This document shows, piece after piece, positions 1-21,741 of a stretch of DNA of 31,488 bases; position 1 is the first letter of the stretch; each line of letters opens with the position of its first letter. A program made the position numbers and the translations under genes. Source of the stretch: a virus (lineage: Duplodnaviria; Heunggongvirae; Uroviricota; Caudoviricetes); the IMG/VR virus record IMGVR_UViG_2778261316_000005. One strand, 5' to 3'. The notes under the pieces were generated by a model, which saw only the letters and a list, made by a program, of their open reading frames with translations, was not told the origin of the DNA and made no database searches.

Positions 1-678
1 ATGTCAAAGACCACTTGCAGGAAATGTGGAAGCGAAGTAGAGCGAAAAGAGAAAAAATGCCCTTACTGTGCAGCAAAAAACCCAGGCATGAGATGGTGGA
101 AGCCGGTGATATTTATCATTGTCCTGGTCGCGCTACTCAAGGCTTGTTCGTACATACCTGATCCAGATCCGGCAAATCTTAGAAACAAAAATACCACCCT
201 CAAAGAATGGCGCAGCATGCTAAGAGATGACAGGTTGAAGTTTATTGATAGCTACCTTGCGCAAGAAAAAATCATCACCTCCGATACTGGTGGATTCTAT
301 AAATGCATCAGCCAGCACTCATATACGAAAAATGATGAGATTAAAGTTGATGAAGCTCTTGGCTGGTGTAAACAAGACTACCTTAAGAATCCCTCGGCTC
401 TATACCAGATGATTGATTTCGACAGATTTATCAGCAACACACGAAAATCTGACAGCTCTTACATCCCCATTACCAGGGATATAAAAAATAAGATGAACGA
501 CCCTTCATCATTCAAGCATCTTGAAACTAGCTATCGGTTTGTACTGGATAATTCAACACCGTATGCGATAGTCACCACGGTCTATCAAGGAAAAAATGCT
601 TACGGTGCGTCCGTCAAAAACTCGATAAAAGCCAAAGTTGACCTTTCCTCCGGCAGCGTAATTGAATATCTCAATTAA
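1..678 (+). CDS. hypothetical protein with N-terminal zinc ribbon (CxxC-x11-CxxC), one transmembrane helix and a ~170 aa C-terminal domain; AT-rich, probable cargo or host gene
   Basis: 225 aa ORF starting at nt 1 with ATG; MSKTTCRKCGSEVERKEKKCPYC followed by hydrophobic WWKPVIFIIVLVALL; GC roughly 40% versus mid-50s for the phage; followed by a hairpin terminator. Confidence 0.55.
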   Translation: MSKTTCRKCGSEVERKEKKCPYCAAKNPGMRWWKPVIFIIVLVALLKACSYIPDPDPANLRNKNTTLKEWRSMLRDDRLKFIDSYLAQEKIITSDTGGFYKCISQHSYTKNDEIKVDEALGWCKQDYLKNPSALYQMIDFDRFISNTRKSDSSYIPITRDIKNKMNDPSSFKHLETSYRFVLDNSTPYAIVTTVYQGKNAYGASVKNSIKAKVDLSSGSVIEYLN

Positions 679-684
679 ACAAAA

Positions 685-704
685 AGCCCCGCAATTGCGG
701 GGCT
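685..704. terminator. bidirectional intrinsic terminator between convergent ORF1 and ogr
   Basis: Perfect 20-nt palindrome AGCCCCGCAA/TTGCGGGGCT flanked by A5 on one side and T5 on the other. Confidence 0.7.
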
Positions 705-707
705 TTT

Positions 708-956
708 TCACATTGCAAAACTGAGTTGATCGTTACCGTAGTGCGATGCGGGAAACGCATCTGAGGGAATGAAATCAGCCGGTAACTTTTCGCGGGGGGC
801 GCGTTTGGTTACCAGTTTCTCAACGCTGTTGAGCGTAGTAAACGTAATACTGCATTCGAAATTCTGGCACTGGTGATAATGCCGGACTGTCATTTCACTA
901 AGATGGCGACTGGTGCGCGTACGGGCGACGGCACCACAAACAGGACACTTAAACAT
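708..956 (-). CDS. ogr: Ogr/Delta-family zinc-finger late transcription activator
   Basis: MFKCPVCGA...RTSRH...RHYHQCQNFECSITF closely resembles P2 Ogr (MFHCPLCQH...RTSRY...RYHQCQNVNCSATF), including the Cys4 zinc motif. Confidence 0.9.
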   Translation of the reverse strand: MFKCPVCGAVARTRTSRHLSEMTVRHYHQCQNFECSITFTTLNSVEKLVTKRAPREKLPADFIPSDAFPASHYGNDQLSFAM

Positions 957-1001
957 AATGGCCTCCCATGGCGGGAGTTGAACTCGCTCATATTATGGCC
1001 G

Positions 1002-2156
1002 CTATGATTCGGTTTCTGCAATCCATTCAGGTATTTTTGCTTCCAGCTCCAGACGTGTTTTAAACCCACTATCGTCAATAGTGTGGCTTGCCTTCGCAAT
1101 TACCCAGTCCTGTCCGTCAATGACGTCTTTGAAGTCCGTTACCGTTCCGTGCATCTCCGGATACAGATCCGCGCGCCCGTAAGCCAGGGTTAGAGAGAAT
1201 TCAGCAGCTCCGCGCTGGAGTTGTTGCCATTTTGCAGCTGCTGCACGTTGTGCGGCCATCTCGCTGCTGTACGTCGTACGGAGTACAAAAACGTTACCAT
1301 CTTCACCGGCAATATAGTCCCCTTCCCGGCTGCTGCTGCGCGGCTTTTTATCTGCGGTTTTCTTCCGCTTTTTAACAGTGACCTTTTTCTTTTTCCCGAA
1401 ATCCATATCCAGCCAGTACGCCTGCACGCCAGTGTATGCGTCGCGATCTGCAATCCGGAAAGAATGGCGATCTCCACTGCTGCGCGTGATGGAAAATTCC
1501 GGCAACGCTCTGCCGTTTGCGCTTACACCACCACCAGGCAGGATGAAGAGCAGGTAACCATTTTTCACAGTTGCAATAGCGCCCAGCATTTCCGCCATGC
1601 GCGTCAGAAACGACATATCGCTTTCCTGCGTCTGATCTGCATGATCGATCTCGGCGGACATCAGTTGCTCTGAGATGAGAGGTTTTAACTTGTACCTGTG
1701 AGCTATAGCAGAGACGATGCGCTCTACTGTAACGTCATGCCACGACACCTCCCGCTTAACGTTAAATTCATCGCGGAAATCTGCACTTCTGGCCGTGATC
1801 TCGATACGGTCCGGCGGCCCTGAGTGCGCAATTTCATCCACGATGAAAATCCCTTTGTGTACCAGTTTTTCTCCCTGCCAGCCTATCGCTACCGATAATT
1901 CAGCGCCACGTGGCGGTAACTCAATATCTCCCTGGCTGTCATCAACAGTGATAGTCAGTTCATCAGCGTTAAAGCCCCTGTTATCTGTTAATTCTAACGA
2001 AAGTATTTTCTCATCCAGCATGATCAGCGCCTTGCCGCCAAGCATGACGTTAAACGCTGGCACACGTGACAGGTCGCCAGGATAATTTTTGAATTTCTCA
2101 GCACCTGCATTCAGCAGGCTTTTTGCGCTCTCTATTGCGTCAGTTGTCAGTGCCAT
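1002..2156 (-). CDS. D: tail protein gpD (late control gene D family)
   Basis: Conserved LSLELTDNRGF...GDIELPPRGAEL...DEIAHSGPPDRIEITARSADF block. Start placed at ATG 2156 (MALTT...) because of the strong RBS GGGAGGAGAAAGCG; the ORF-track start at 2237 has no RBS and would overlap the promoter dyad. Gives 384 aa, P2 D-like size. Confidence 0.85.
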   Translation of the reverse strand: MALTTDAIESAKSLLNAGAEKFKNYPGDLSRVPAFNVMLGGKALIMLDEKILSLELTDNRGFNADELTITVDDSQGDIELPPRGAELSVAIGWQGEKLVHKGIFIVDEIAHSGPPDRIEITARSADFRDEFNVKREVSWHDVTVERIVSAIAHRYKLKPLISEQLMSAEIDHADQTQESDMSFLTRMAEMLGAIATVKNGYLLFILPGGGVSANGRALPEFSITRSSGDRHSFRIADRDAYTGVQAYWLDMDFGKKKKVTVKKRKKTADKKPRSSSREGDYIAGEDGNVFVLRTTYSSEMAAQRAAAAKWQQLQRGAAEFSLTLAYGRADLYPEMHGTVTDFKDVIDGQDWVIAKASHTIDDSGFKTRLELEAKIPEWIAETES

Positions 2157-2214
2157 CGCTTTCTCCTCCCGCAAATATTTCCATGCGCGCGCGATAGGAC
2201 AAACAGCCTTTTGT

Positions 2215-2232
2215 TGTCGCCTTTCTGCTACA
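2215..2232. promoter_or_regulatory. TGT-N12-ACA dyad (Ogr-type late promoter activator site) between the divergent FI and D starts
   Basis: TGTcgcctttctgctACA; centre about 55 bp upstream of a plausible FI transcript start (FI ATG at 2308) and about 65 bp from the D ATG on the other strand. Confidence 0.45.
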
Positions 2233-2307
2233 TCCATCGCAACGTGTCTGCTGCCCGGAATTCAGCGAATATCACCATGAACTCACTAAACATGATGGCG
2301 GTAGAGT

Positions 2308-3489
2308 ATGACCGACAACCTTTTCCACGGGGCGCGCACCAAAGAAAACACCGACCTCCAGACCGCGATCAATGACATTGATTCAACGGTCATTGGTCTG
2401 GTTGCGGTGGCCGATGATGCCGATCCCCTCACCTTTCCACTTGATACGCCAGTCCTGATCACTCGCGTGATTAGCGTGCTGGGTAAGGCGGGCAAAACAG
2501 GCTCACTGTATAAATCTCTCAAGGCTATTTCCGACCAGGTCAGCACGCGTGTAATTGTTGTTCGTGTCGCTGAAGCAAAGGAAGGAGAAAATGCCAAAAC
2601 GCAATCCCAGCTCATTATCGGTGGCACGCAGGCTGACGGAAGCTATACCGGGATGTTTGCCCTGTTGACCGCAGAGCAGAAAACCGGTTATCGCCCTCGC
2701 ATCCTCGGCATTCCGATGTACGACACGCAGGAAGTGACCGCACAGCTGCGCGTAATTGCGAAGCAGCTACGTGCATTCTCTTACAGCTACTGCGATGGCT
2801 GCGAGACTATCGCCGAAGCGAAAACCTACCGCGAGCAGTTCGCAGAGCGTGAAGGGATGATGATTTGGCCCAACTTCATCGCCTTCAACCCGCAGACCGG
2901 CGTTAATGAAGAATTCCCGGCTGTTGCCTATGCGCTTGGCCTGCGGGCACTGATTGATAATGAGCAGGGCTGGCACAAATCACTTTCTAACGTTGCGGTG
3001 AAAAACGTCCTGGGTATCTCTAAAGACGTGTTCTGGGCGTTACAGGCTGAGGACTCCGACGCTAACGAGCTGAACGCTAACGAGATTACCACGCTGATCA
3101 AACGCGATGGCTTCCGGTTCTGGGGTAACCGTACCACCGACACCGAAGAGTATATTTTCGAGGTGTTTACCCGGACGGCCCAAATTCTTGCGGACAGCAT
3201 TGCGGAAGCACAATTCACCACCGTGGACAAACCGCTTACCCCGGCTAACGTCAAAGACGTAGTAAGCGGGATCAATGCCAAACTTCAGGCGCTGGTCACT
3301 GCTGGCAAACTGATTGGTGCTGCATGCTGGTTTGATATTGTCGATAACCCGACCACCGGTATTCGCCAGGGTAAAGCTGTTGTTCGCTACAACTACAGCC
3401 CCGTACCACCGCTGGAAAACCTGACGCTGATCCAGACGTTTACCGATCAGTATTACGAACCAGCCTTTGCATCGCTGGGAGGTGCATAA
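2308..3489 (+). CDS. FI: contractile tail sheath protein gpFI
   Basis: 393 aa; strong similarity to P2 FI throughout (LRAFSYSYCDG..., GWHKSLSNV..., TTLIKRDGFRFWGNRT..., YSPVPPLENLTLIQ). Confidence 0.95.
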   Translation: MTDNLFHGARTKENTDLQTAINDIDSTVIGLVAVADDADPLTFPLDTPVLITRVISVLGKAGKTGSLYKSLKAISDQVSTRVIVVRVAEAKEGENAKTQSQLIIGGTQADGSYTGMFALLTAEQKTGYRPRILGIPMYDTQEVTAQLRVIAKQLRAFSYSYCDGCETIAEAKTYREQFAEREGMMIWPNFIAFNPQTGVNEEFPAVAYALGLRALIDNEQGWHKSLSNVAVKNVLGISKDVFWALQAEDSDANELNANEITTLIKRDGFRFWGNRTTDTEEYIFEVFTRTAQILADSIAEAQFTTVDKPLTPANVKDVVSGINAKLQALVTAGKLIGAACWFDIVDNPTTGIRQGKAVVRYNYSPVPPLENLTLIQTFTDQYYEPAFASLGGA

Positions 3490-4005
3490 ATGGCTATTCC
3501 GAAGAAACTCCGCCTGTTCACGATGTTTGTCGATGGCGACAACTACATCGGGAAGATCCCCAGCGTCACGCTCCCCAAAATTACCCGCAAAACGGAAGAT
3601 TATCAGGGTGGCGGGATGCTTGGCTCCGCTGCTGTTGACCTCGGCCTTGATTCAGGTGCACTGGATGCATCAATGGTTGTTGGCGGCATGGTCGAAGAGC
3701 TGATCCTGAAATGGGGCGGGGATATTGACGAACTACGCACGCGCTTTGTCGGTGAGATCTACAGCGGTGGAACAAGTTCCCTGCTTGAGGTCGAGATGCG
3801 CGGACGTATTACCGAAGTTGACCAGGGCGAAGCCAAGCAGGGTGATGACACCAGCCATACTTATGCGCTCAAAAATACGTATTACAAGCTCTCCGTGGAT
3901 GACAAGCCTTTGCTGGAAATCGACCTGCTGAACTTCATCTACAAGCGCAACGGCAAGAGTCTCTACCCGGACCGCATTGCGTCCGCCCTGGGCCTCGGCC
4001 AGTAA
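3490..4005 (+). CDS. FII: tail tube protein gpFII
   Basis: 171 aa; MAIPKKLRLFTMFVDG...VTLPKITRKTEDYQGGGMLGS matches the P2 FII N-terminus; RBS GGAGG upstream. Confidence 0.95.
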   Translation: MAIPKKLRLFTMFVDGDNYIGKIPSVTLPKITRKTEDYQGGGMLGSAAVDLGLDSGALDASMVVGGMVEELILKWGGDIDELRTRFVGEIYSGGTSSLLEVEMRGRITEVDQGEAKQGDDTSHTYALKNTYYKLSVDDKPLLEIDLLNFIYKRNGKSLYPDRIASALGLGQ

Positions 4006-4058
4006 TCTTTTTTAACCACTACCAATGGCGGCCAGCCTGGCCGCCCGGAGAAAGAATA

Positions 4059-4358
4059 ATGTCAGTAATTCTCAGCCAACCCATTAAACGCGGCGACCAG
4101 GAAATCAAATCCGTCGCAATCACCGACACAATCAAGCAGGCTGGCTCACTGCGCGGGCTGCGTCTGGTTGACGTTCTTAACTTCGACTATGACGCGGTAT
4201 CAACTCTGTTGACACGCGTCACCGCGCCTCAGCTGACAACCACTGATATTTCCTCAATGGCGACCGGCGACTTTACGGCGCTGTGCGAAGAAATCACGCC
4301 TTTTTTGACGAAAGCGGCGCCGTCCGCACCGAGCGAGGCGGCGACGGCGAGCAAGTAA
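4059..4358 (+). CDS. E: tail assembly chaperone gpE (zero-frame product)
   Basis: 99 aa; position between FII and tape measure; contains the slippery heptamer TTTTTTG at 4301-4307. Confidence 0.85.
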   Translation: MSVILSQPIKRGDQEIKSVAITDTIKQAGSLRGLRLVDVLNFDYDAVSTLLTRVTAPQLTTTDISSMATGDFTALCEEITPFLTKAAPSAPSEAATASK

Positions 4359-4531
4359 GAGAGGCAGTATTCAGCGATGTCGACGATCTGATCGCTGACA
4401 TCGCTGTGATATTTCACTGGCCGCCCTCCGAAATGCACAGCATGGAGTTGCGCGAGCTGATGGCCTGGCGCGAACGGGCGGCCATCAGAAGCGGTAACCA
4501 TGAGAAGGAGGATGACGACGATGGATCTTAG
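4059..4531 (+). CDS. E': gpE+E' fusion produced by programmed -1 ribosomal frameshift at TTTTTTG (4301-4307)
   Basis: The -1 frame continues open from the slippery site (…PF|FDESGAVRTERGG…) to 4531, overlapping the tape-measure start, as in P2 E/E'. Confidence 0.75.
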
Positions 4532-7493
4532 TATTCGCGTTGCGTTCAGTGCAATTGACAAGCTCACCCGCCCGGTCAGCGCCGCCAGTAAAGCCATTGG
4601 CGGCCTTTCTGACTCCCTCAAAAAAACACAGTCTTCCATCAGAGACCTGGAAAAAAGCGCAACGTCATTTGATAAGCTGCGCTCGCAAGCCAATGACACT
4701 GCGCAGAAGCTGAAAAGCACCCAGCGGGCCTTTGACGGTCTCAACCAGAAACAACGCGAAGGCGGCCAGCTTACTGAAGCCCAGACGGCACGACTTGAGT
4801 CGCTTCGCACCAAACTTTCCCGGCTGACTGAAACCTACAGCAGGCAAACGACGCAGCTGCGCACAGCTGCGCAGGCAGTGCGCCAGCATGGGGTTAACCT
4901 CACCACCGGCAGCGGCGCCATTCAGAGTGCCATCAGGCGTACGGAGCAATACAACCAGACGCTTGAGCGCGAACGTCGCCAGCTGGCAGCTACCCAGAAA
5001 GCCCAGGCCAGATACGATCGGGCAAAAGAGACTGCGGGCAAACTTCGCGGTGCTGGTATGGGTATGATGCTTGGCACTGCTGCTGCGGGCTATGCTGGCG
5101 GATCATTCCTGGCGCCTGCGATTGGTTTCGACGAGGAAATGTCACGTGTCCAGGCATTAACCCGCCTTAACAAAGACTCTTCCCAGATGGGAGATCTGCG
5201 GGCGCAGGCTAAAAAACTCGGTGCAGAAACCGCATTCACCTCACGCGATGCAGCCAGCGGGCAGGCATTTCTTGCAATGGCTGGCTTTACCCCAGAAGCT
5301 ATTCAGGCGGCATTGCCCGGCGTTCTGAATATGGCGCTGGCCGGCGGCATGGATCTTGGTGAAAGTGCCGACATCAGCTCCAACATTCTTTCGCAGTTCC
5401 GTCTCGATCCAAAGGAAATGGATCGGGTCAGTGATGTTTTGACCGCAGCATTTACCCGTACCAACACCGATTTAATGAACATCGGTGAGGCTATGAAGTA
5501 TGCAGGAACCGGGATGGCCGGTCTTGGCGTTGATGTTGAACGCACAACCGCCATGATCGGTGTAATGGCGAACGTTGGCCTGCGCGGAAGTATTGCAGGT
5601 ACGGGACTGCAAACCACCTTCTCGCGTCTGGCCGCACCAACAGGTAAAGCTCAGGCAGCCCTGAAAGAATTGGGCGTTTCTGTTGCCGATGCCACCGGAA
5701 AAATGCGACCGGCCGAAGTGGTCCTGTCTGATATTTATAAATCTATCAAAAAGTACGGTGACACAGACCAGTTGTCATTCTTCAAAGACATAGCAGGTGA
5801 GGAAGCAGCAAAGTCATTTCAGGCGCTGGTTAGATCGGCTGGTAGCGGTGAGCTGCAAAAACTCCTTGCCGATTTGCGCGGCTCTCAGGGTGAAGCGCAG
5901 AAGGCAGCGAAGGTCATGGCTGACAACCTCAGCGGTGATCTGAAAAACCTGGACAGCGCATGGGAGGGTTTCCGCATTCAGGTTGAGGAGACTGCCGACG
6001 GCCCTCTGCGCTCTCTCACTCAGGGGCTTAGCGATATGATCACCGCTGCCAGCACCTGGGTAAAAGAAAACCCCCGCCTGACACAAACAATCATTCTGGT
6101 TGTCGGTGGGGCACTCGCACTGGTTGCGGCAATTGGCGCTGCGTCACTGGCGATGGGTATTCTTATTGGCCCCCTCACCAAACTTCAGCTCGGTTTTTCA
6201 CTGCTGACCGGTGGTCGCGGGCTACTCGGCACCATTGCAGCTTTTCGCACTCTCGGCACTGTCGCGGGCCCGGCCATGGCGAACGTCAGAGGATGGTCCG
6301 TCGTACTGTCAGGAATCGCCCCTAACCTGGGAAGAATTTCAGCTATTCTCCCTGCGGTTCGCTCTGGTCTGCTTACCGCATTCCTGTCTCCTGGCGCACT
6401 TTTGGGATCGCTGACTAAAAACATTGGCATGTTGCTGTTGCGCCTCACTGGCTTGCCAGCAATCTGGGGCATGATCACCGGTGCGGTATCTATTCTTGGT
6501 GGGGCTTTATCTTTCTTACTCAGTCCAATAGGCCTGATTGGCGCCGCATTTGTCGCTGCGGGGTTGCTAATCTGGCGATACTGGGAACCCATTAAGGCGT
6601 TTTTCCTCGGTATGTTTACCGGAGTTATGCAGGCGATTTCACCTCTCAGGGATACCTTTGCCACCTTTTCCCCCATCTTTGACATGATCAGCAATGGGGT
6701 TAAATCCGTCTGGCAGTGGTTTACGAACCTCTTATCGCCAGTGCAGACCAGCAAGGAGACGCTTGATAAATGCACGAGCGCTGGGGAGACTTTCGGTAAC
6801 GTGCTCGGCGGGGCAATTAACCTTGTTCTGACCCCCGCAAAAATGCTCCTTGATACTTTAGGCTGGATACTCGAAAAGCTTGGCGTGTTACCCGATGAAG
6901 CAGAGAGGGCGAGCAAGAAACTGGATACCGCGAGAGCCAAAGCCAACGACCTGACTCCCAAAAAACCAGTTTCATGGGAGTGGGACCCACAGCAAAAGAA
7001 AATGGTCCAGAAGGAATGGAACTGGTCCCCCAAAAAAGCAGAGTCGCCAGTTGCTACTGGCGCACCACCAGGGGCCTCGCCACTGTCAGGAAATACCGGT
7101 ACGCAAAGACGTCTGCAAAGCATCGCAGACAATACAAAAGCAACCGCTGACAACACCAAGAAAGTCGGTCCGGGCGACATTATTTTCAAAAACCTGCCGC
7201 GTGCTCTGGCTTTGCGTGGCGCATACCAGGAAGCGCGTGTCACACCGCAATCAGTACCGCGAGTGGCAACACCCGCAGCTGGCGGCATTATTTCAGCGAC
7301 AGCAGCCACACAGGCTCCGGTATCAGCTCCTGTTACCGCTCCGACCGGCGGTGCCCCAGTTTTTAACATTACCTTTAACGATGTTGGTAAGCGCACGGAT
7401 CAGGAGCTGGAGAGAATGATGCGCAATGTTGTGCGTGATGCGATGGCCAGCACCGGCAGAATTAACCGTGGTTCTTTCCGCGACAGAGATTAG
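4521..7493 (+). CDS. T: tail tape measure protein gpT
   Basis: About 990 aa with coiled-coil N-terminal part, hydrophobic Gly/Ala-rich central segments and a C-terminal region; start placed at the ATG 9 nt after AGGAGG (the ORF is open from 4500). Confidence 0.9.
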   Translation: MDLSIRVAFSAIDKLTRPVSAASKAIGGLSDSLKKTQSSIRDLEKSATSFDKLRSQANDTAQKLKSTQRAFDGLNQKQREGGQLTEAQTARLESLRTKLSRLTETYSRQTTQLRTAAQAVRQHGVNLTTGSGAIQSAIRRTEQYNQTLERERRQLAATQKAQARYDRAKETAGKLRGAGMGMMLGTAAAGYAGGSFLAPAIGFDEEMSRVQALTRLNKDSSQMGDLRAQAKKLGAETAFTSRDAASGQAFLAMAGFTPEAIQAALPGVLNMALAGGMDLGESADISSNILSQFRLDPKEMDRVSDVLTAAFTRTNTDLMNIGEAMKYAGTGMAGLGVDVERTTAMIGVMANVGLRGSIAGTGLQTTFSRLAAPTGKAQAALKELGVSVADATGKMRPAEVVLSDIYKSIKKYGDTDQLSFFKDIAGEEAAKSFQALVRSAGSGELQKLLADLRGSQGEAQKAAKVMADNLSGDLKNLDSAWEGFRIQVEETADGPLRSLTQGLSDMITAASTWVKENPRLTQTIILVVGGALALVAAIGAASLAMGILIGPLTKLQLGFSLLTGGRGLLGTIAAFRTLGTVAGPAMANVRGWSVVLSGIAPNLGRISAILPAVRSGLLTAFLSPGALLGSLTKNIGMLLLRLTGLPAIWGMITGAVSILGGALSFLLSPIGLIGAAFVAAGLLIWRYWEPIKAFFLGMFTGVMQAISPLRDTFATFSPIFDMISNGVKSVWQWFTNLLSPVQTSKETLDKCTSAGETFGNVLGGAINLVLTPAKMLLDTLGWILEKLGVLPDEAERASKKLDTARAKANDLTPKKPVSWEWDPQQKKMVQKEWNWSPKKAESPVATGAPPGASPLSGNTGTQRRLQSIADNTKATADNTKKVGPGDIIFKNLPRALALRGAYQEARVTPQSVPRVATPAAGGIISATAATQAPVSAPVTAPTGGAPVFNITFNDVGKRTDQELERMMRNVVRDAMASTGRINRGSFRDRD

Positions 7494-7502
7494 GTGACGA
7501 TT

Positions 7503-7991
7503 ATGATGATGGTTTTTGGAATGTTCGTTTTTATGCTGCGCACCACCCCTTACCAGCAACTCCAGCACTCGCAGGAGTGGAGGCACGTAAAAAACGAGCG
7601 GGTTAACCAGTCAGCTGGCTGGCAGTACATTGGCGCCGGTGATGACAATATAACGCTGTCAGGCGTCCTTTACCCGGAAATCACCGGTGGAAATCTCTCG
7701 CTGTCAGCCCTTGAAACTATCGGCTACGCAGGGCGCCCATGGCCCCTTATTGAGGGTACGGGGCGTATTTATGGTATGTACGTTTTAACACGTCTGGAGC
7801 GGGGCAAGTCCGAGTTTGACCGATTTGGGAATCCAAAAAAAATCGAATTCACCCTCAGCCTGAGCCGTGTCGATGCGGATTACAGGGAGAAGCTACAAAG
7901 CTCGACCGTCAGCGATGCCCTGGCGGGGTTAAAGACGAGTGCAAATAATGCGATAAACCAGGTGAAAGACTCGCTCAACGGCCTGTTTTAG
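7503..7991 (+). CDS. U: tail protein gpU
   Basis: MMMVFGMFVFMLRTTPYQQL...WRH matches the P2 U N-terminus (MMMVLGLFVFMLETAPFQEL); AGGTGA RBS 5 nt upstream. The ORF-track GTG at 7494 lies inside the RBS. Confidence 0.9.
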   Translation: MMMVFGMFVFMLRTTPYQQLQHSQEWRHVKNERVNQSAGWQYIGAGDDNITLSGVLYPEITGGNLSLSALETIGYAGRPWPLIEGTGRIYGMYVLTRLERGKSEFDRFGNPKKIEFTLSLSRVDADYREKLQSSTVSDALAGLKTSANNAINQVKDSLNGLF

Positions 7992-7998
7992 TGATGCC

Positions 7999-8567
7999 TT
8001 AAGCCCCTTCATGTTCCCTTCTTGCTGAAGGGAACTTTTTATAAAGCGTCGACATTCCGACATCAAAAATAATAGCCACCCGCTGTCGTTTCTCCCCTGC
8101 GGCTATCAGTCTTCCCGCCTGTTCCCATTGCTGCTTTGTCAGTTTAGGTCGCCTCCCGCCTATCCTTCCTTCTGCGCGGGCAGCAACCAAACCGGTGCGG
8201 GTGCGCTCAACGATTAACTCTCTCTCCATTTCTGCCAGCGCCCCATGACGTGAAAGAAAAAGCGCCCCATAGGTGTTGAGGTATCAATGCTGTCTGTCAG
8301 GCTGCGGAAGTTAACACCGCGATTGCGTAGCTCTTCGATCATTGTCACCAGGTGTCGCATGCTCCGCCCGAGACGATCAAGCTTCCAGACAACCAGCGTA
8401 TCCCCCTCCGATAAGGTCCGTAATAAACGCTTAAGGCCCGGCCTTTCCGCTTTTGTTCCGCTTATTTTGTCTTCAAATATTTGTACACATCCTGCGCTTT
8501 CCAGTGCATTTCTTTGCAGCGCGGTGTTCTGGTCATTTGTTGACACCCTTACATAGCCGATCAGCAT
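7999..8567 (-). pseudogene. Hin/Gin/Pin/Cin-family serine DNA invertase, split by a 1-nt frameshift (or homopolymer sequencing error)
   Basis: The N-terminal ORF (8214-8567) has the catalytic motif YVRVSTNDQ and ...MGRFFFHVM; the C-terminal ORF (7999-8229) has the HTH domain ...ALAEMERELIVERTRTGL... in another frame. One base is missing in the run at 8241-8244; the joined product would be about 189 aa. Confidence 0.8.
8013..8040 (+). terminator. intrinsic terminator of the FI-U operon
   Basis: Stem GTTCCCTT / AAGGGAAC with a 7-nt loop followed by TTTTT, 22 nt after the U stop; it lies inside the 3' coding end of the minus-strand invertase. Confidence 0.6.
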
Positions 8568-8673
8568 AAAAATCCCCTTTATTTAGATGCCATAGTCCCT
8601 CGCATTGTATCGAGCATCGTCATTTCTGGCTGTACTGCAGGTTAGGTACCGCACCGTCAGAAGTAACTATGTC

Positions 8674-8699
8674 TTCCGGCAAACGTTGGTTTAGGAGAT
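8674..8699. other. gix/hix-like 26-bp invertase crossover site (left boundary of the invertible segment)
   Basis: TTCCGGCAAACGTTGGTTTAGGAGAT resembles the gix consensus TTCCTGTAAACCGAGGTTTTGGATAA; lies between the invertase start and the promoterless alternative fibre tip. Confidence 0.6.
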
Positions 8700-8729
8700 A
8701 TCAGTGCTACAGGTGTTGCGACAGGTAGT

Positions 8730-9065
8730 ATGGGCGGAACCGGATATGCCATATTTCCGATGATGATTGGCGGTGCACGTAAGACTTTTATTATGCAATG
8801 GGGATTGCTGACGCCTCTGAAATCAGGTGGCTATGTGAATATTAACCTTCCTGTCGCTTTTCCTACTATGGTGATGCAGGCATATGCAACACATGATAAT
8901 GCGACACTAAACACACGCCCGACAGTATATGCAATTACTACAACAAGCCGAACCACTATCACTGCGACGGCGACGTGCTTAGATGCTGGCTCAGTGGGCG
9001 CTACAGTGACACGCAGTAGTGACGATACTGCGTGTTACGGTCGTTATTTTGCAATAGGGTGCTGA
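8730..9065 (+). CDS. alternative tail fibre C-terminal variable cassette (Sv'-like), silent in this orientation
   Basis: Reading frame is open back to the left gix-like site (…PANVGLGDISATGVATGSMGGTG…), with no start or promoter of its own; Gly/Thr-rich fibre-tip-like sequence; directly followed by an assembly gene. Confidence 0.55.
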   Translation: MGGTGYAIFPMMIGGARKTFIMQWGLLTPLKSGGYVNINLPVAFPTMVMQAYATHDNATLNTRPTVYAITTTSRTTITATATCLDAGSVGATVTRSSDDTACYGRYFAIGC

Positions 9066-9066
9066 A

Positions 9067-9510
9067 ATGAATCTTAAATATTTTTCTCCATCTGAAAATG
9101 CGTTTTATGCCGGGGAGCTTAAAGAAAGCTATATCGCTGCTGGCTCATGGCCTTCTGATGCCTCGGAGGTTGATGAAAGTCTTTATCTTGAGTTTATCGA
9201 TAAACCGCCAGCAGGTAAGTATCGAGGAGTGGATAATGCAGGAATGCCCTGCTGGCTTGAAATTCCTCCTCCCACAGTAGAGGAAATGGCATCGAATGCA
9301 GAGAATATAAGACAGCAGCTCATTGATAAGGCAAATGTTTATATAAACAATCGTCAGTGGCCGGGAAAAGCAGCGATAGGCCGTTTAAAGGCAGATGAAC
9401 TGGAACGATATAACCTTTGGCTGGATTATCTGGACGCACTGGAACTGGTCGATACTTCCGGTGCGCCAGATATTGAATGGCCTACGCCTCCGGCAGCTCA
9501 GGCCAGATGA
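9067..9510 (+). CDS. tail fibre assembly protein (alternative, U'-like)
   Basis: 147 aa; C-terminal ...DTSGAPDIEWPTPP motif shared with the other tfa (…TAPDVIWPELP); 3' ends of the two genes overlap convergently. Confidence 0.8.
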   Translation: MNLKYFSPSENAFYAGELKESYIAAGSWPSDASEVDESLYLEFIDKPPAGKYRGVDNAGMPCWLEIPPPTVEEMASNAENIRQQLIDKANVYINNRQWPGKAAIGRLKADELERYNLWLDYLDALELVDTSGAPDIEWPTPPAAQAR

Positions 9511-10084
9511 CATCCGGCGCGGTGCTGGTATCCGTTGCCGTCACCGCGTCAATGTAATCCAGCACAGCGTTTAATCGGGTGGTTTCTGTCTGCGTCAGCT
9601 TCCTCCCGGCCTGCAATTTCAGTTGAATCAGACTAATGGAAGCCATTGCAGTATCAATCAGTGACTGACGCTGTGCTTCTGCCGCGCTTACTGCGGCGCT
9701 ATGCTGTGCCTCAGTATCTGTCACCCATTTCTCACCATCCCATTTATCGTATGGCGTTAACGGGGCGATAGTGGTTGTATTTTCGGGGTAATCACCCAGA
9801 GCTGTGATTTCTTTGGCGTCTCCCGTTTCGGTGTTATAGACGATTTCACCGCGATGGTCTGGCACATATTCCCATGAGTTTAAATCTGCCGAACGGCAGA
9901 TTGCATAACCAGCCTTATGTATACCAGGTTCATCCAGACAGGAATATGCCGGGATACCAACACCAACGGCAAGATATTCATTTGAAGTGGAAATATATTC
10001 CCGAGTTTCACCATCATAGCTATAGACGGTAATATCCCCCGCCTTCGTGGCAATAAGCTCGCTATTTAATACAGCGTTATCCAT
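9482..10084 (-). CDS. G: tail fibre assembly protein gpG
   Basis: 200 aa immediately downstream of H (TAATG overlap); tfa-type C-terminal motif. Confidence 0.85.
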   Translation of the reverse strand: MDNAVLNSELIATKAGDITVYSYDGETREYISTSNEYLAVGVGIPAYSCLDEPGIHKAGYAICRSADLNSWEYVPDHRGEIVYNTETGDAKEITALGDYPENTTTIAPLTPYDKWDGEKWVTDTEAQHSAAVSAAEAQRQSLIDTAMASISLIQLKLQAGRKLTQTETTRLNAVLDYIDAVTATDTSTAPDVIWPELPEA

Positions 10085-11370
10085 TATGCAGCCCTCACGA
10101 TAAAGTTAAATGCAATATTTCGCGCACGTGTTTCCGTTGATGTTCTGGCAACAAGTGATGCATCAAAATAATAATTCGCCTGTTTATATGTACCACCTAT
10201 CGCAATTGGTGTGAGATTTGGTTGCACTATTGAAGAGGTAAATGCGCCGAAAGTATTATTATTTGTCCCCGTGGTCATATCAAAAAAGCTACCTGTAATA
10301 TTTTGCAGCGTATCGCTCTGAGCACTCAATAACGCTCGCCCACTGTCCACTCCACGCCCATCATCCCAGCCACGAATAAACTCACCCCGCAGATCTGGCA
10401 GCACAAGACCGGGGTAAACCAGTGCCAGCTTCGGATAATTTTCAGCTGCAAATGGAGCGCCGTTACATTTCAGCCATCCTGTTGGTGGAGTGGCTAAAGG
10501 CCACGGAACAGGCACACCAACGGGTAATGCCGAACCTTCTCCCAAACCAAGGTTTTGGAGAAACTTCGCCACGTCAGGAATATCCCCGCCGTTTTGGCCT
10601 TTCTGCATCGCCCCGGTAATTCGAGCATCATCCCCCGAGGCTACCGTTCCGGCCGTTGTTCCAACATTTCGCGTCGAGCTGTCACCCAGCTCTAAATTCT
10701 GCCGTGCTAATGCGGTATCGGGTAAGTCCGACAGGTTGCGATCTTTTGCCAGCCGTGCGCTCCCGTTATCCATCGCAATTTTAACGGCCTTCGATGTTGC
10801 CGCCTGCGACTCGCTGTCACTGGTCACACTGCTGCTGAGCTGCACAAACCCTTTCTCTGTCGTTGACGCATCCGGGTGATTACGTGACTGCTCATGCGCG
10901 CGCAGCTGGCTGTCAACATACTGGCGTGTTGCCAGAACAACAGCCGGATCAATCTTCAACGTAACGGCTTCGGTGCTGCTGACAATCAGGATCACGCGAA
11001 TAACCTGAACGCGCCCGCTCCCCTCCTGCAACTGAGGCTTATAGGTTTCTGCGCAATTGGCAATCGCCACCATATCGCCATCTTTATCGAAAAGGCCGAT
11101 CTCACGAATCCACCACCCGCCGACGTCTTCCGGTATGACCTGTTCCGCAATGATCTGGCTGGCGTTCGCCGGGTCCACCGTCAGCATATTCAGAGGGGCG
11201 CGGCGTAACTCATGTACGAGGGCAGTTTGCGCCGGATTCGGTGTAGGCAGTACACCATTGCCATCACCAACGGCCAGCTGGGTAATCTCAACTTTCGTAC
11301 CCAACGCCGTGGCTTTTGCCAGTTTTGCCGCCCCGATATTGGTCAACAGGGCAAGATATTTAGTCGCCAC
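10084..11370 (-). CDS. H: tail fibre protein gpH (constant N-terminal part plus the currently expressed variable tip)
   Basis: N-terminus ...GAAKLAKATALGTKVEITQLAVGDGNG...HPDASTTEKGFVQLSS resembles P2 H; start placed at GTG 11370 with a GGAG RBS (the ORF track extends to a TTG at 11391). Confidence 0.9.
   Translation of the reverse strand: MATKYLALLTNIGAAKLAKATALGTKVEITQLAVGDGNGVLPTPNPAQTALVHELRRAPLNMLTVDPANASQIIAEQVIPEDVGGWWIREIGLFDKDGDMVAIANCAETYKPQLQEGSGRVQVIRVILIVSSTEAVTLKIDPAVVLATRQYVDSQLRAHEQSRNHPDASTTEKGFVQLSSSVTSDSESQAATSKAVKIAMDNGSARLAKDRNLSDLPDTALARQNLELGDSSTRNVGTTAGTVASGDDARITGAMQKGQNGGDIPDVAKFLQNLGLGEGSALPVGVPVPWPLATPPTGWLKCNGAPFAAENYPKLALVYPGLVLPDLRGEFIRGWDDGRGVDSGRALLSAQSDTLQNITGSFFDMTTGTNNNTFGAFTSSIVQPNLTPIAIGGTYKQANYYFDASLVARTSTETRARNIAFNFIVRAA
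10537..10562. other. gix/hix-like crossover site inside tail fibre gene H (right boundary of the invertible segment)
   Basis: TTCTCCCAAACCAAGGTTTTGGAGAA; its reverse complement matches the left site at 19 of 26 positions with the same central TT, and the codon phase is the same (N-L-G-L-G versus N-V-G-L-G). Confidence 0.6.
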
Positions 11371-11974
11371 TTGCGATCTCCACGGTATCAATTAAATGGA
11401 TTGCTGCGCCGGTGTAGTCATTGCCACCCACAGCGATAGTTTCAGGAAAATAGGGATATATCGTCAGCGTATCGCCCACGTAACACCCCGCCCCTATCTC
11501 GATATAACCCTGAGACTGAAGCGAAAGCGAAAGGCCGGTGAGGTGACGGCTTCTGGGTTTTGCATCGTTGATCAGGCGCTCAAGCTCCCGATAAGTCTCC
11601 TCGGTGATCCCCTCATCCTGAATGCCGATTTCAAGCCGGAAAGTGCCTGGCTCCTCGCCGTTCTGCCACCACTCAATCACCCTCAGCAAATAGCCGAAAG
11701 GTTCAACAACGCGCCTCAACGCCGAAATCGTGCCTTTGTGACGATGGACAAGCCAGGAGGCTTTGATTACCTGCCTCTTGGTCTGTTCAGACCAGCGCTT
11801 ATCCCAGCGATCAACAGACAACGCCCAGGCCAGATAGGGTAAAAACTCCACGGGGCATTCATCCGGATTCCAGAGCTTTCGAAGGTCGACAGGAATACCG
11901 CTGATCCGCGCCGTCGGTTTCTCCGCATTCCGCATGAAAGTGCTGGCTGAAGGCGGCAGGAGGCTGTTATTCAT
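11360..11974 (-). CDS. I: baseplate protein gpI
   Basis: ...LWNPDECPVEFLPYLAWALSVDRWD...HKGTISALRRVVEPFGYL...TFRLEIG closely resembles P2 gpI. Confidence 0.9.
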   Translation of the reverse strand: MNNSLLPPSASTFMRNAEKPTARISGIPVDLRKLWNPDECPVEFLPYLAWALSVDRWDKRWSEQTKRQVIKASWLVHRHKGTISALRRVVEPFGYLLRVIEWWQNGEEPGTFRLEIGIQDEGITEETYRELERLINDAKPRSRHLTGLSLSLQSQGYIEIGAGCYVGDTLTIYPYFPETIAVGGNDYTGAAIHLIDTVEIASGD

Positions 11975-12863
11975 CCGTTCCCCCTACGTTGATGGTGTGC
12001 GAAATACATCGTGCCGCCTGGGTATCATCGATCACGATATCTTCCGGAGGGTTCAGCAAGACTACACGCTGCACCCCCTGCACATGCAGAGCGGCCATAA
12101 TGGCCGAACGCGCAACATCGCGACCGATTTTCCCCTGCTCTGTGAGCCATGCCCGCAGTGCATCATCTGCCGCACTCAGGATCGGCTCAGATTCCGGCCC
12201 CGGATAGAGATAAAGCAGAGAGTCAATTTCATAATTCACAATCTCCGCTGACTGGACGGTTAGCCGGTCAGCGACAGGCCGCTTATCATCCGCTGAGAGC
12301 GTGTCGTTTACTGTTGCGATCAGCTCGTTGCTAGCCGTGCCATCCCCTTCGGTAGACAGAATGGACACGACGACAACAGCGGGTGAGGGGCTGGTTGCCC
12401 TGGCATCTGCAACTTTACCGCTGGCACTCTTCGCAAAATATTCGTATGCCCCGGTAGGGCCAGCAACGCTCAACCCTTCAAAAGCGGATTGCGCACGCAG
12501 ACGCAGCGCGGTGTCGCTTTCCATCTCTGCATCGGTGGTTTCGGTAGCCGGAATACGAACCAGGCGCTCGGTGTTCAGGTTACCCGCAAGGTTATCAAGA
12601 TCGGTGGAGACGGAATGGCTCAACATGCAGGCCGCAGCCCCCTCATTGATTCGCTGGCGCAGCATTAATTCCCGGTAGGCAATCACCTGCGCCAGTATGG
12701 TCAGGGGTTCAGACTCAAGTTTTAACGCAGCGGCAACAGAAGCCTGTTGTTCATCAGGGAAAGCCGCGATCATGACGGCTTTGACATCCGCCAGAATCAC
12801 TTCAAAATCCAGCGCCTCAATAATCTGCGGCGGGGGTAGCTGCGCCAAATCAACTTGTGCCAT
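11967..12863 (-). CDS. J: baseplate assembly protein gpJ
   Basis: MAQVDLAQLPPPQIIEALDFE...RPVADRLTVQSAEIVNYEIDSLLYLYPGPESEPI matches P2 gpJ. Confidence 0.9.
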   Translation of the reverse strand: MAQVDLAQLPPPQIIEALDFEVILADVKAVMIAAFPDEQQASVAAALKLESEPLTILAQVIAYRELMLRQRINEGAAACMLSHSVSTDLDNLAGNLNTERLVRIPATETTDAEMESDTALRLRAQSAFEGLSVAGPTGAYEYFAKSASGKVADARATSPSPAVVVVSILSTEGDGTASNELIATVNDTLSADDKRPVADRLTVQSAEIVNYEIDSLLYLYPGPESEPILSAADDALRAWLTEQGKIGRDVARSAIMAALHVQGVQRVVLLNPPEDIVIDDTQAARCISHTINVGGTDE

Positions 12864-13218: not shown

Positions 13219-13799
13219 TTCGTGCCCTCCGTCCAGCTTCCGCCACGCTGCACTCCACCATGACCATGATCATCAACCTGCACACCGTTTGAGATGAACG
13301 CACCGCCAGTGTGCGTAAAGTCCCCCTGCATTTTGCCGCCTTCCGTAACGGTGAAATTTTTGGTTTTCAGCATCTCGGTACACTCGACCAGTGGCGTTTC
13401 CAGTAAGACCTTAACCGACGCCTCAATCGTTGCTGATTTAATACCGCTGACCTGCAAAGCCCCTGCTTCTGCGTCATAGCGAAACTTCGCTCCATCCGGT
13501 GCGGTCACGATCATTTCTTTTGCCGATATGCCTGGCGCCGGATTGTCGTTGCTGTAAAGACTTCCCCCTATGATCGCAGCGGTAGTGTTACCCCCAAGGC
13601 ACAGGAACCATACCTGCTCGCCAACAGACGGCGGCACCCAGATGCTGAAAGCGCCTGCACGCTGTGCATTCCAGCGCAGCCAGGTCGAATCCAGCTCTCC
13701 GCTTTTTACCCTTACCCGCCACTTTTCCTCGTCTATCTCCGTCACCGTACCGGTGCGAACGATGTTTTCCAGCAGGCGAATGACTTCAGCCAGATCCAT
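13215..13799 (-). CDS. V: baseplate spike protein gpV
   Basis: ...WVPPSVGEQVWFLCLGG...QVSGIKSATIEA...DFTHTGG matches P2 gpV. Confidence 0.9.
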   Translation of the reverse strand: MDLAEVIRLLENIVRTGTVTEIDEEKWRVRVKSGELDSTWLRWNAQRAGAFSIWVPPSVGEQVWFLCLGGNTTAAIIGGSLYSNDNPAPGISAKEMIVTAPDGAKFRYDAEAGALQVSGIKSATIEASVKVLLETPLVECTEMLKTKNFTVTEGGKMQGDFTHTGGAFISNGVQVDDHGHGGVQRGGSWTEGTK

Positions 13800-14440
13800 C
13801 AGCTCACCCCCAGAGAATCAATGACCTGTCGGGCTATAGCCATGCGGTCCGCCTTGCTCAGGCCGAGCAACTCACGGCGCGGGTAGCTGGCCATCGCGCC
13901 ACTGTCGTTTACCCTGTCCCGTAGCCCGTACTGGTGAACGCGGGCGATGCGGGCAGCAGCGCCCGAAAAACCAACTACAGCCCCCTCAGAAGTCGCTCTT
14001 GCTTTCAGAAAACGGGTTGTGCGCAGTCGGCGAAACATAGGATCGCTTTTCGTGGTATCACGGCGCGTCTCGCTGAAACTGATATCAAGATAACGCTCAA
14101 TATCAGAGCGATAGAACGAGCGAACGGCCCCTTTCCCCTCATCAAAGCCTGTCAGCATGCGTCCCCGGCTTCCACGGGTTGCCCGCCAGTTCCTCAGACG
14201 ACGCTCCTCACCTTGCCAGACAAACCCGATCCCAGCCTGGGAGCGTAAGACGCGGCGATGACGCTTCTGGTATTTCGTGCCATCCGGAGCTGCCTGCTTC
14301 CCTATGCGCTGGCTCTGGCTACGGCGTAATGTAGTCGCTATTCCGCGCGCAGTACGCAACCGTCTCGCTGGCGCCATTGCGGACAGGATGTCTGCAAAAA
14401 CCTGATCGAGTTGATGAAACAGCGCTGCATCATCGGTCAT
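13799..14440 (-). CDS. S: virion morphogenesis / tail completion protein gpS
   Basis: Position between R and V; Arg-rich 213 aa protein typical of the Phage_tail_S family. Confidence 0.8.
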   Translation of the reverse strand: MTDDAALFHQLDQVFADILSAMAPARRLRTARGIATTLRRSQSQRIGKQAAPDGTKYQKRHRRVLRSQAGIGFVWQGEERRLRNWRATRGSRGRMLTGFDEGKGAVRSFYRSDIERYLDISFSETRRDTTKSDPMFRRLRTTRFLKARATSEGAVVGFSGAAARIARVHQYGLRDRVNDSGAMASYPRRELLGLSKADRMAIARQVIDSLGVS

Positions 14441-16249: not shown

Positions 16250-16440
16250 AATTGAACAGTCTCCTTTGTCGCAGAGGTGTCGACGTCAGGCAGTTCAACT
16301 TCCTGCCCTGCATCAAGGAAGATCTGACCGGCCAGCGCATGATTCGCAGCCAGTACGATCTCGGTCACGCCCTGGGTGATGCCGTAGTGACGCTGACACA
16401 ACAAATCCACTGTATCGCCCTGCAATGCCTTCACTTTCAT
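16240..16440 (-). CDS. X: tail protein gpX
   Basis: MKVKALQGDTVDLLCQRHYG...ELPDVDT... matches P2 gpX (MKTFALQGDTLDAICVRYYG...). Confidence 0.85.
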   Translation of the reverse strand: MKVKALQGDTVDLLCQRHYGITQGVTEIVLAANHALAGQIFLDAGQEVELPDVDTSATKETVQLWS

Positions 16441-16937
16441 CAGAACGCCTCCGCAGAGTTACGGACCACACCCTGAATATCCGAGATAGCCCAGCGCGCA
16501 TCACGCCAGTGATCATTCGCCTGGGTTGCGAGTGCGGCGGCGCGCTTCTCGCCCGCGTCGCCCGTGGTGTCAACATCGCGGAAAGTCTCGATCAGCAGGG
16601 CACGCGAGATGCTGTAAACTGCGCGGCGCCAGCGATATACCTTTACGCTCTCGTCGTTTATCACCATGGCCGGTACGGCGGCCAAACTGGTATATCCGGC
16701 CCCAATCTGTTCAGCCTGCCATTGCTTCAGCTGGTCAGCAGTGTGAGCTACGGCTTCGATGACCACCTGCTTTAAACGCGAAGTGGTAACCGCACCGGTG
16801 ATCCGCATCTCCTTACGGACGTTGCTCAGCACTATCTCGGGCCAGAACTCCCCGGCGGTGACTTTCTCTCCGCCGTCATCCACGTCCGGCACATCCTCCG
16901 CAGAGGGGGTAACTGTGCGAGGGGCCACAAGGCTCAT
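16440..16937 (-). CDS. L: head completion/stabilisation protein gpL
   Basis: 165 aa; synteny between M and X; similarity to P2 gpL (…VKVYRWRRAVY…HWRDARWAISDIQG…). Confidence 0.9.
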   Translation of the reverse strand: MSLVAPRTVTPSAEDVPDVDDGGEKVTAGEFWPEIVLSNVRKEMRITGAVTTSRLKQVVIEAVAHTADQLKQWQAEQIGAGYTSLAAVPAMVINDESVKVYRWRRAVYSISRALLIETFRDVDTTGDAGEKRAAALATQANDHWRDARWAISDIQGVVRNSAEAF

Positions 16938-17040
16938 CGTGTAGTCTCCAGAAAAGGTTGGCGGTGAGCGGACGGAGAAAAGCTAACGCGATGCGTTGCA
17001 GATCTCCGCCCGCGCCGCCAGCGCACGGGGCGCAAGTCGG

Positions 17041-17904
17041 TTATTTTTTATCGGCGGTGCTCTTTTTCGTCGTTGTTTTGCGGGCCGCCGTTTTACGTGT
17101 TGTGTTGCCAGGGTTGCTTTTGGTGGCTGGCTTTTTGGCATCTGGCACCGTCACTTCCGGCGTTGCTGCAGCCTGATCATTACCCCCTTCGCCCCCGCTC
17201 TGGTCTGCGCCCTCACTGTCTGATGCATTTTCCGCAGAGGCCTTTTTCACCTGCCTGGCAAGCTTATCGATCAGTTTTTTCACCCCGGCGCCGGAGTCGA
17301 GATTCAGCGCACGGCGCAACAGCTCCAGCGCAGTCGCCTGTTCATCCGTTGTGCCGTTGCACAATGCAAAAGCGCGGGCTTTATACAGCTTGGCCCGGAC
17401 AACGTCTGGCATATCGCTGTTTTCAGTGATCTCCTGGACCTCATCGAGCACCGCCAGATATGGCTTAACATCAGTGCTGTCATCCGCCTTGACCTGCAAC
17501 AGAATGGGATCGCAAATCTCATCGACCAGCGCTGTCGCTGCCGTGCGGTTAAACCGGTCTGGCATTGCCAGATTGTGCGCGATGACATACCGACCGATGC
17601 GGACGGCCAGTGGATAATCACGAATATCAATCGCCCAAATCATCAGTCGCGTGATCACTTCATCCTGTCGCCCGCTGTCTCCCTCCAGCGTTCCTTCAAT
17701 CCACCCCTCGTAATTGGGTAGCAGCTGGCGTTTAAGCGCGGCTTTTGCCTGTTCGCCCTGAATTTTCTTCAGCGCACTCATATCCATACGCATGCGATGC
17801 AGAATTTGCTCGTGCGCTGTACGCGCCGTTTCTGACAGGTCATCTGCCTTGCCATGGCGCTCAGCCATGACGCGTTGAAAATGTCGTTGTGCCGGTGTCA
17901 GCAT
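17041..17904 (-). CDS. M: terminase endonuclease (small) subunit gpM
   Basis: MLTPAQRHFQRV...MPDVVRAKLYK...GVKK... resembles P2 gpM; start placed at ATG 17904 with a GGGGAAG RBS (ORF track extends to 17994); Lys/Thr-rich C-terminal tail. Confidence 0.85.
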   Translation of the reverse strand: MLTPAQRHFQRVMAERHGKADDLSETARTAHEQILHRMRMDMSALKKIQGEQAKAALKRQLLPNYEGWIEGTLEGDSGRQDEVITRLMIWAIDIRDYPLAVRIGRYVIAHNLAMPDRFNRTAATALVDEICDPILLQVKADDSTDVKPYLAVLDEVQEITENSDMPDVVRAKLYKARAFALCNGTTDEQATALELLRRALNLDSGAGVKKLIDKLARQVKKASAENASDSEGADQSGGEGGNDQAAATPEVTVPDAKKPATKSNPGNTTRKTAARKTTTKKSTADKK

Positions 17905-17950
17905 TGTTTCTTCCCCGATGAACGGCGGGCCGAAGCCCGCCAGTGTGCGG

Positions 17951-19000: not shown

Positions 19001-19023
19001 GTTCTCTGCTCTCGTAGTGGATA

Positions 19024-19933: not shown

Positions 19934-19951
19934 TGTGAGCGGAGCACTACA
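19934..19951. promoter_or_regulatory. TGT-N12-ACA dyad (Ogr-type late promoter activator site) in the divergent O/P intergenic region
   Basis: TGTgagcggagcactACA, roughly 55 bp from plausible transcript starts on both strands. Confidence 0.45.
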
Positions 19952-21739: not shown

Positions 21740-21741
21740 CC

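Follow-up and report, generated by a model that had tools for sequence, protein, structure and literature searches.

An inverted FI-U tail operon in a branch of P2-like prophages, with a candidate shared late promoter for gene D

The DNA analyzed here is the 31,488-nucleotide virus record IMGVR_UViG_2778261316_000005 (the whole stretch is referred to as the window), which by its open reading frame (ORF) layout and Pfam matches is a complete P2-like (Peduoviridae) prophage. A Pfam search of the window proteins identified the P2-type gene set with gpQ, P, O, N, M and L, as well as FI, FII, E, T, U and D (Table 1). The matches include the P2-specific families Phage_GPO, Phage_cap_P2, Phage_GPL, Phage_P2_GpU and Phage_GPD, and exceed the curated cut-off for the whole set except gpE (20.0 bits versus a cut-off of 25). 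The genes FI, FII, E/E′, T and U (positions 2308-7991, the FI-U block) are located on the plus strand, and ogr, D, a serine DNA invertase, and the fibre and baseplate genes on the minus strand.

In the P2 reference genome (Peduovirus; NC_001895), the genes V, W, J, I, H, G, FI, FII, E, T, U, D and ogr are all read from one strand with only fun(Z) on the opposite one, and a tblastn comparison of the window proteins with P2 placed every match on the same strand. The original prediction, made from the sequence of the window alone, had given this P2 order correctly and proposed that FI-U is inverted relative to it, which is borne out by both the annotation and the tblastn matches. The two phages share the gene set, the late-gene logic, the Ogr activator, an E/E′ −1 frameshift (annotated in P2), and a divergent P/O promoter pair served in P2 by one annotated activator site. 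P2 differs from the window in having FI-FII-E-T-U-D-ogr as one co-directional unit transcribed from pF, in which the start of D adjoins the stop of U, and in having a separate pV promoter. In the window, D is separated from U and diverges from FI, and the canonical P2 late order, in which FI..U-D-ogr is co-directional with V..G, is absent. The proteins of the two phages are 34-57% identical (47% for gpD by tblastn).

The closest genome is a prophage of Yokenella regensburgei ATCC 49455 (NZ_JMPS01000017; L005), which is essentially the same prophage with 99% identity. The proteins encoded from ogr to the invertase are 94-100% identical, and the strands, the D/FI spacer and the terminator are as in the window; in contrast to the window, its invertase gene is intact (a C5 run instead of C4) and its contig stops inside a gix site. 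The closest phage records are Klebsiella phage 3LV2017 (Reginaelenavirus) and Serratia phage KSP20. When positions 700-9600 of the window were compared with phage records using megablast, both gave single matches collinear with the window over approximately 724-5470 (76-78% nucleotide identity), spanning ogr, D, the spacer, FI, FII, E and the start of T. Their spacers of ~151-153 bp contain the same dyad, CG box and GAACTCA motif as the window. In both records, the gpD-like and gpFI-like genes are annotated on opposite strands. Unlike the window, 3LV2017 lacks both an invertase and an invertible fibre segment, and its U gene converges directly on a tail collar fibre gene and has its own terminator; the KSP20 record is only a 6-kb fragment.

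An identical arrangement is found in the Escherichia phage P88 (Peduoviridae, Xuanwuvirus; NC_026014), which has been induced and forms plaques (PMC5285337; PMC6456863). As in the window, the baseplate genes, H, G and the alternative G′/H′ genes of P88 are accompanied by an invertase that is read away from the fibre segment and towards which U-T-E-FII-FI converges; D and ogr are divergent from FI. It differs in its proteins (45-80% identical), in a TGT-N12-AGA dyad at both divergent regions, and in an intact invertase gene, which ends 35 nt before U and does not overlap the terminator.

The layout is widespread among the relatives of this prophage. A more sensitive search of phage records with a 1.7-kb query centred on the D/FI junction revealed 31 records in which a single match place spanned 80% or more of the query, together with further records at 66-77% coverage, including Klebsiella, Enterobacter, Escherichia, Citrobacter and Salmonella phages. 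The same order is present in annotated genomes of at least five genera of the International Committee on Taxonomy of Viruses, represented by P88, 3LV2017, phiT5282H (Novemvirus), SEN4 (SEN4/5; Senquatrovirus) and ST16-OXA48phi5.4 (Reipivirus), and in the KSP20 fragment. From one-genome-per-species bacterial genomes, 21 prophage loci were fetched with the gpU of the window, and 19 of them showed the full strand pattern (ogr and D on minus, FI to U on plus, followed by the invertase or by fibre and baseplate genes on minus). Locus L014 is a short contig with FI-U only, locus L023 is uninformative, and the layout was found in all 20 informative loci. The 19 loci are from Yokenella, Kosakonia, Enterobacter, Serratia, Klebsiella, Pantoea, Pectobacterium, Brenneria, Kluyvera, Salmonella and Hafnia.

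Both features of the P88/3LV2017-type order are present in the window: D and FI diverge across a ~150-bp spacer that aligns with 21 related spacers, and the U 3′ end faces the fibre module in convergent orientation across an optional cargo slot, occupied here by the invertase. The prophage is thus a member of the Peduoviridae by gene content, within a branch with the P88/3LV2017-type order, and the canonical P2 late order is a trait of Peduovirus and many other genera, but not of the whole family. P88, phiSM and the KSP20-like Serratia prophage PP4 are reported to be inducible, particle-forming phages (PMC5285337, PMC6456863, PMC9826266), and therefore this gene order is functional. It has also been plain in public annotations since the KSP20 record (P88, SEN4, 3LV2017 and the near-identical Yokenella prophage), although no explicit discussion of the FI-U inversion was found in the literature on P88, Citrobacter phiSM, SEN4/5, Serratia PP4/KSP20 and Burkholderia P2-like phages.

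The direction of the change was analyzed in a census in which gpU and gpD were joined as one tblastn query against all phage records. In 358 of the 496 matching records, U and D are adjacent and co-directional, down to ~29% identity (Arya, PPpW-3, FoX1) and including phages of Burkholderia, Ralstonia, Pseudomonas, Mannheimia, Stenotrophomonas and Xanthomonas. Two separate match places were found in 50 records, which include every listed record with a D protein at least 60% identical to that of the window. Since adjacent, co-directional U and D genes are retained in distant P2-like phages, the flip would represent a derived inversion fixed in the lineage of the window. The split order appears confined to one branch of Enterobacterales P2-like phages and would most simply be explained by a single derived inversion. 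The reverse polarity, with the order of the window ancestral and the P2 FI-U-D order derived, is improbable given that co-directional U-D genes occur in phages of both Beta- and Gammaproteobacteria and the split state only near the window.

We favour, with a probability of about 85%, the reading that this prophage belongs to a P2-like branch in which a single inversion of the FI-FII-E/E′-T-U operon and its late promoter took place in an ancestor and became fixed, and in which D would now have its own late promoter with a shared dyad. Fixation of such an inversion would have produced the order baseplate and fibre genes (minus strand), optional cargo, U←T←E←FII←FI converging on them, and then D and ogr diverging from FI. 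As to the original prediction, its inversion is a correct but ordinary observation, because this is the normal, fixed order in a large, already sequenced P2-like branch. The arrangement is not unusual, but is shared by ~50 of 496 P2-like phage records and by all listed records with D at least 60% identical. The refuting condition set out in the prediction gives a split outcome: the P2 reference has the order that the prediction gave for it, and close relatives share the order of the window rather than that of P2.

The prediction had also judged the arrangement to be stable and not a misassembly, in agreement with the collinearity of the D/FI junction with 3LV2017 and KSP20 and with the layout common to relatives. 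An assembler could have mis-oriented the FI-U block, perhaps confused by the nearby invertible fibre segment, and the Yokenella ATCC 49455 contig does end in the gix site equivalent to 8674-8699, indicating that this neighbourhood can break assemblies. However, the same contig is unbroken from ogr via D and FI to U into the invertase with identical strands, ~50 phage records agree with it in orientation, as do the other informative genome loci, and the 22-sequence alignment reveals the D/FI spacer as a conserved, structured element and not a join. An assembly artefact is already effectively refuted, its remaining chance being negligible.

Because the FI-U block ends next to an invertase gene (7991 versus 7999), the inversion might have been made, or might still be switched, by this serine invertase acting on secondary gix-like sites, and serine invertases can act on degenerate sites. 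The fibre segment at 8674-10562 and the adjacent invertase fit the Gin/Hin/Pin/Cin type of invertible segments (Mu G segment type). One strand of the segment carries the H C-terminus and G, and the other an alternative fibre tip (8730-9065) and chaperone (9067-9510), as identified by Pfam; the two gix-like sites have central TT and AA, respectively. In a scan with a dyad model built on these local sites (maximal score 24, sites listed from a score of 17), they scored 24 and 23, and the next best site in the window 19. At neither junction of the block (2157-2307 and 7990-8010) was a gix-like site with a score of at least 17 of 24 found, in line with the predicted absence of such a site at the D/FI junction, so that the block has no listed recombination site at either end.

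A search within positions 1-12000 revealed no inverted repeats flanking the FI-U block. A 17-nt inverted repeat (16/17 complementary, 94%; 1043-1059/7787-7803) was rejected, being located inside D and U, not bounding the block, and near chance for 12 kb. The two orientations of a switch were not observed, the 20 informative genome loci and the ~50 phage records from this clade all having the same one, and the invertase itself is present in only six of the 21 genome loci and one of the five complete phages with the same order, being absent from 3LV2017, phiT5282H, SEN4 and ST16-OXA48phi5.4. Thus, the ~5.8-kb FI-U block, with no flanking recombination sites, a single orientation and mostly invertase-free relatives, differs from known invertible segments and lacks every feature of a serine-invertase switch that was examined. 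Because the order is mostly found without an invertase and the block lacks flanking gix-like sites, the FI-U inversion was not caused by the tail-fibre invertase, and the link to the neighbouring invertase made in the original prediction is not supported. A role of the invertase in switching the block is very improbable also in view of its frameshift in the window. The invertase belongs to the fibre switch (8674-10562), has no part in the inversion of FI-U, and is simple cargo between the fibre module and U.

The invertase of the window is split into two ORFs, which encode the catalytic domain (8214-8567) and the helix-turn-helix domain (7999-8229), a correction to the original prediction. The frame is broken by the loss of one C in the run 8241-8244 compared to the intact 190-aa gene of Yokenella ATCC 49455, which reflects either a sequencing error in the homopolymer or a genuine inactivation by which the fibre switch is locked. 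The gene (stop at 7999-8001) ends with ~14 codons for a non-conserved tail following the ...LYKKFP end of the intact Yokenella protein. As predicted, the FI-U terminator is located inside this 3′ end: a hairpin with a 9-bp stem at 8013-8035, followed by a T-run, is the best plus-strand terminator-like site after U, and the FI-U transcript would end there. The Kluyvera locus (L019) has a similarly placed hairpin and T-run. The Yokenella contig ends exactly inside the first gix site, which would be expected if the culture was mixed for both orientations of the fibre segment. The slot between the U 3′ end and the fibre module is variable, containing an invertase and fibre cassette (window, P88 and Kluyvera), nothing (3LV2017), or DUF262 and other genes (ST16-OXA48phi5.4), and appears to be the positional equivalent of the P2 fun(Z) hotspot.

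The start and the strong ribosome-binding site of D were predicted correctly, with an ATG at 2156-2154 and GGAGGAG at 2169-2163, six bases upstream. This start column is kept in 21 of 22 aligned sequences. A longer D ORF extending to 2237 was rejected, since the annotated gpD of 3LV2017 has 384 aa as expected for a start at 2156, and the small indels of relatives lie upstream of the conserved start. Some public records over-extend D or FI over the divergent spacer: the gpD-like protein of KSP20 has 476 aa (AB452988, L002; 838-2268), and FI is too long in phiT5282H (L027; 5397-6623) and ST16-OXA48phi5.4 (L029; 35465-36763). Because of this annotation, the conserved promoter region is hidden in these three records.

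Alignment of 22 D/FI spacers (the window and 21 relatives) shows a structured, conserved region rather than a scar. The dyad has the exact form TGT-N12-ACA at the same column in 19 spacers and TGT-N12-AGA in the other three, with N12 varying freely. On the D side, the box CATGCGCGCGCGA is nearly invariant, and the spacing between the dyad, this box and an AAnnAT element is fixed across relatives with D proteins only 58-60% identical. Similar motifs are present in the P/O region of the window, which contains one dyad (19934-19951) flanked by an CGCGCGCGCG box towards P and by GAACTCA towards O, and the P/O regions of five complete relatives share this design. The alternating CGCGCGCG box (CG box) is located ~22 nt beyond the dyad on the D and P sides (2182-2194 and ~19974-19985), but not on the FI or O sides, and it was found at the D-side and P-side promoters of all six complete genomes (the window and the five phages L004 and L026-L029). 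In P2, the PP promoter, for which the start site is annotated, has a CG-rich box CGCGGGGCGCG in the equivalent place. A literature search found no description of the CGCGCGCG box. The D/FI and P/O regions of any one of the six genomes carry the same variant of the dyad, which is ACA for the window, 3LV2017 and SEN4 but AGA for P88, phiT5282H and ST16-OXA48phi5.4. This concordance, as expected if one cognate Ogr reads both regions, suggests co-evolution of the dyad with Ogr.

Late promoters of P2 contain a partial dyad TGT-N12-ACA about 55 bp upstream of the transcription start, as described in the P2/P4 literature, and are transcribed in dependence on Ogr and on the alpha subunit of RNA polymerase. 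In the P2 record, pO and pP share one annotated activator site, and their start sites are 111 bp apart, placing the activator site ~55 bp from each annotated start; with predicted starts, the geometry of the D/FI dyad of the window would match this. The D/FI spacer would then be a second bidirectional late promoter like the P/O pair, giving D (and ogr) its own late promoter. Inversion of FI-U would cut the P2 U-D junction, so that D would lose the F-operon promoter; D, and ogr by read-through, would instead use a late promoter on the far side of the Ogr-binding dyad from which FI is driven. For a dyad centre at −55, transcription of FI is predicted to start near 2279-2281 and that of D near 2168-2170. 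The late genes of the window would form four units: P-Q, O...G, FI...U and D-ogr. More specifically, the inversion may have created this second bidirectional promoter, with the dyad at 2215-2232 firing FI rightwards and D-ogr leftwards and the CGCGCGCG box marking the D and P sides, a tentative proposal against which the odds are somewhat tilted. The box could act as a contact or DNA-structure element for only one of the two promoters in each divergent pair.

Several points weigh against an ancestral inversion that left D on a late promoter shared with FI. The 21 genome loci were recruited by the gpU of the window itself, so that this sample is biased to its relatives and is not random for the family, and a single ancestral inversion depends on the clean separation by D identity in the junction search and the census. 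The promoter function proposed for the D/FI spacer is purely comparative. The predicted D leader is only ~12-14 nt long with the Shine-Dalgarno sequence at its extreme 5′ end. The better-conserved dyad arm (TTGTTGT) faces D at D/FI but O at P/O, although the CG box pairs D with P, and therefore the two regions are not simple copies of each other. The ACA/AGA concordance comprises six genomes and maybe just two evolutionary events. Finally, the exact TGT-N12-ACA motif has five matches in the whole window versus 5.9 expected and is not significant by itself; therefore, only its position and conservation carry weight. Duplication of the P/O spacer as the origin of the D/FI spacer was considered and is unproven, with low similarity beyond the shared motifs and the strong arm of the dyad reversed.

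Given the very short predicted leader, the layout could be as described with a D promoter that is not Ogr-dependent through the FI dyad, in which case an unrelated promoter would serve D, or the CG box would be an operator or RNA element. We know of no function for the CGCGCGCG box, and a consensus sigma-70 scan found no minus-strand promoter in 2157-2307, a result which is expected for activator-dependent promoters and hence uninformative. In contrast, the dyad, the CG box and AAnnAT are kept at fixed spacing in relatives with divergent D proteins, and the same P-side promoter arrangement is present in six genomes, with the CG-rich box of P2 PP in an equivalent position. A different promoter for D is therefore considered unlikely.

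If D does use the dyad it shares with FI, this clade would be an example of an essential phage gene that lost its operon promoter and was re-wired through re-use of a symmetric activator site. The gain of a late promoter by D through sharing the symmetric activator site of FI would be a modest by-product of this analysis, which otherwise matters little as a discovery, and the second bidirectional late promoter with its CG box is the only part that may be new. For the interpretation of other sequences, P2 cannot serve as a template for every P2-like prophage, and within this clade divergence of D and FI at their junction should not be taken as a sign of a rearrangement or misassembly.

Table 1. 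Positions of genes and sequence elements in the window
Feature	Position	Strand	Basis or remarks
Intrinsic terminator 3′ of ogr	681-708	−	Perfect 14+14 palindrome, also closing the plus-strand ORF 1-678
ogr-type late activator, Ogr/Delta zinc finger	708-956	−	Ogr_Delta, PF04606, E 1.9e-18
D, gpD (baseplate hub/late control D), 384 aa	1002-2156	−	Phage_GPD, PF05954
D/FI divergent spacer, 151 bp	2157-2307		Proposed bidirectional Ogr-dependent late promoter region, putative function
−10-like AAATAT (AAnnAT element)	2180-2175	−	Fixed spacing to CG box
D-side box CATGCGCGCGCGA	2182-2194	D side	Alignment of 22 spacers
Activator dyad TGTCGCCTTTCTGCTACA, TGT-N12-ACA	2215-2232		Alignment
FI-side −10-like GAATAT/TATCAC	2267-2275	FI side	Sequence
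Conserved GAACTCA	2279-2285	FI side	Invariant-looking in alignment
FI, tail sheath	2308-3489	+	PF04984, PF17482, PF22671
FII, tail tube	3490-4005	+	Phage_tube, PF04985, E 1e-46
E	4059-4358	+	PF10109, weak (20.0 bits, below the 25-bit cut-off); tblastn 37-99% identity to gpE of relatives
E+E′ product	4059-4531	+	−1 slippery heptamer T TTT TTG at 4301-4307
T, tape measure protein, 997 aa	4500-7493	+	PF10145, E 5.8e-50
U, tail protein gpU, last gene of the plus-strand operon	7494-7991	+	Phage_P2_GpU, PF06995, E 2e-41
Serine DNA invertase (Gin/Pin type)	7999-8567	−	PF00239 (Resolvase) and PF02796 (HTH_7) on two ORFs
Intrinsic terminator of FI-U operon	8013-8042	+	GTTCCCTTC-TTGCT-GAAGGGAAC then TTTTTAT; 9-bp stem 8013-8035
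Invertible tail-fibre segment, ~1.9 kb	8674-10562		Inverted 26-bp gix-like sites TTCCGGCAAACGTTGGTTTAGGAGAT (8674-8699) and TTCTCCCAAACCAAGGTTTTGGAGAA (10537-10562)
G, fibre chaperone	9482-10084	−	Pfam
H, fibre	10084-11391	−	Pfam
Baseplate genes		−	ORF list and Pfam
Head genes L, M, N, O	16440-19857	−	ORF layout and Pfam
P and Q	20018-22794	+	ORF layout and Pfam

Among the remaining genes, ogr begins 46 nt downstream of D and encodes a protein with 41-94% amino acid identity to the products of same-position genes of relatives (tblastn). After the slippery heptamer in the E frame, the −1 frame (E′) is open to 4531, which at the sequence level is evidence for the E+E′ product. The late genes from O to G (19857 down to 9482) resemble a single ~10-kb operon. 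Within it, the S stop and V start overlap (ATGA) at 13797-13801, and the same S/V overlap is found in P88; because S and V overlap at 13799, the window has neither a separate V promoter (P2 pV) nor a counterpart of the orf30 insertion. At the left edge of the window, a plus-strand ORF (1-678) of at least 225 aa begins at or before the first position, has a low G+C content (~45%), and stops 3 nt short of the palindrome at 681-708. It has no Pfam match and may be a moron or a flanking host gene, and the prophage end (attR) should be located near this ORF and palindrome.

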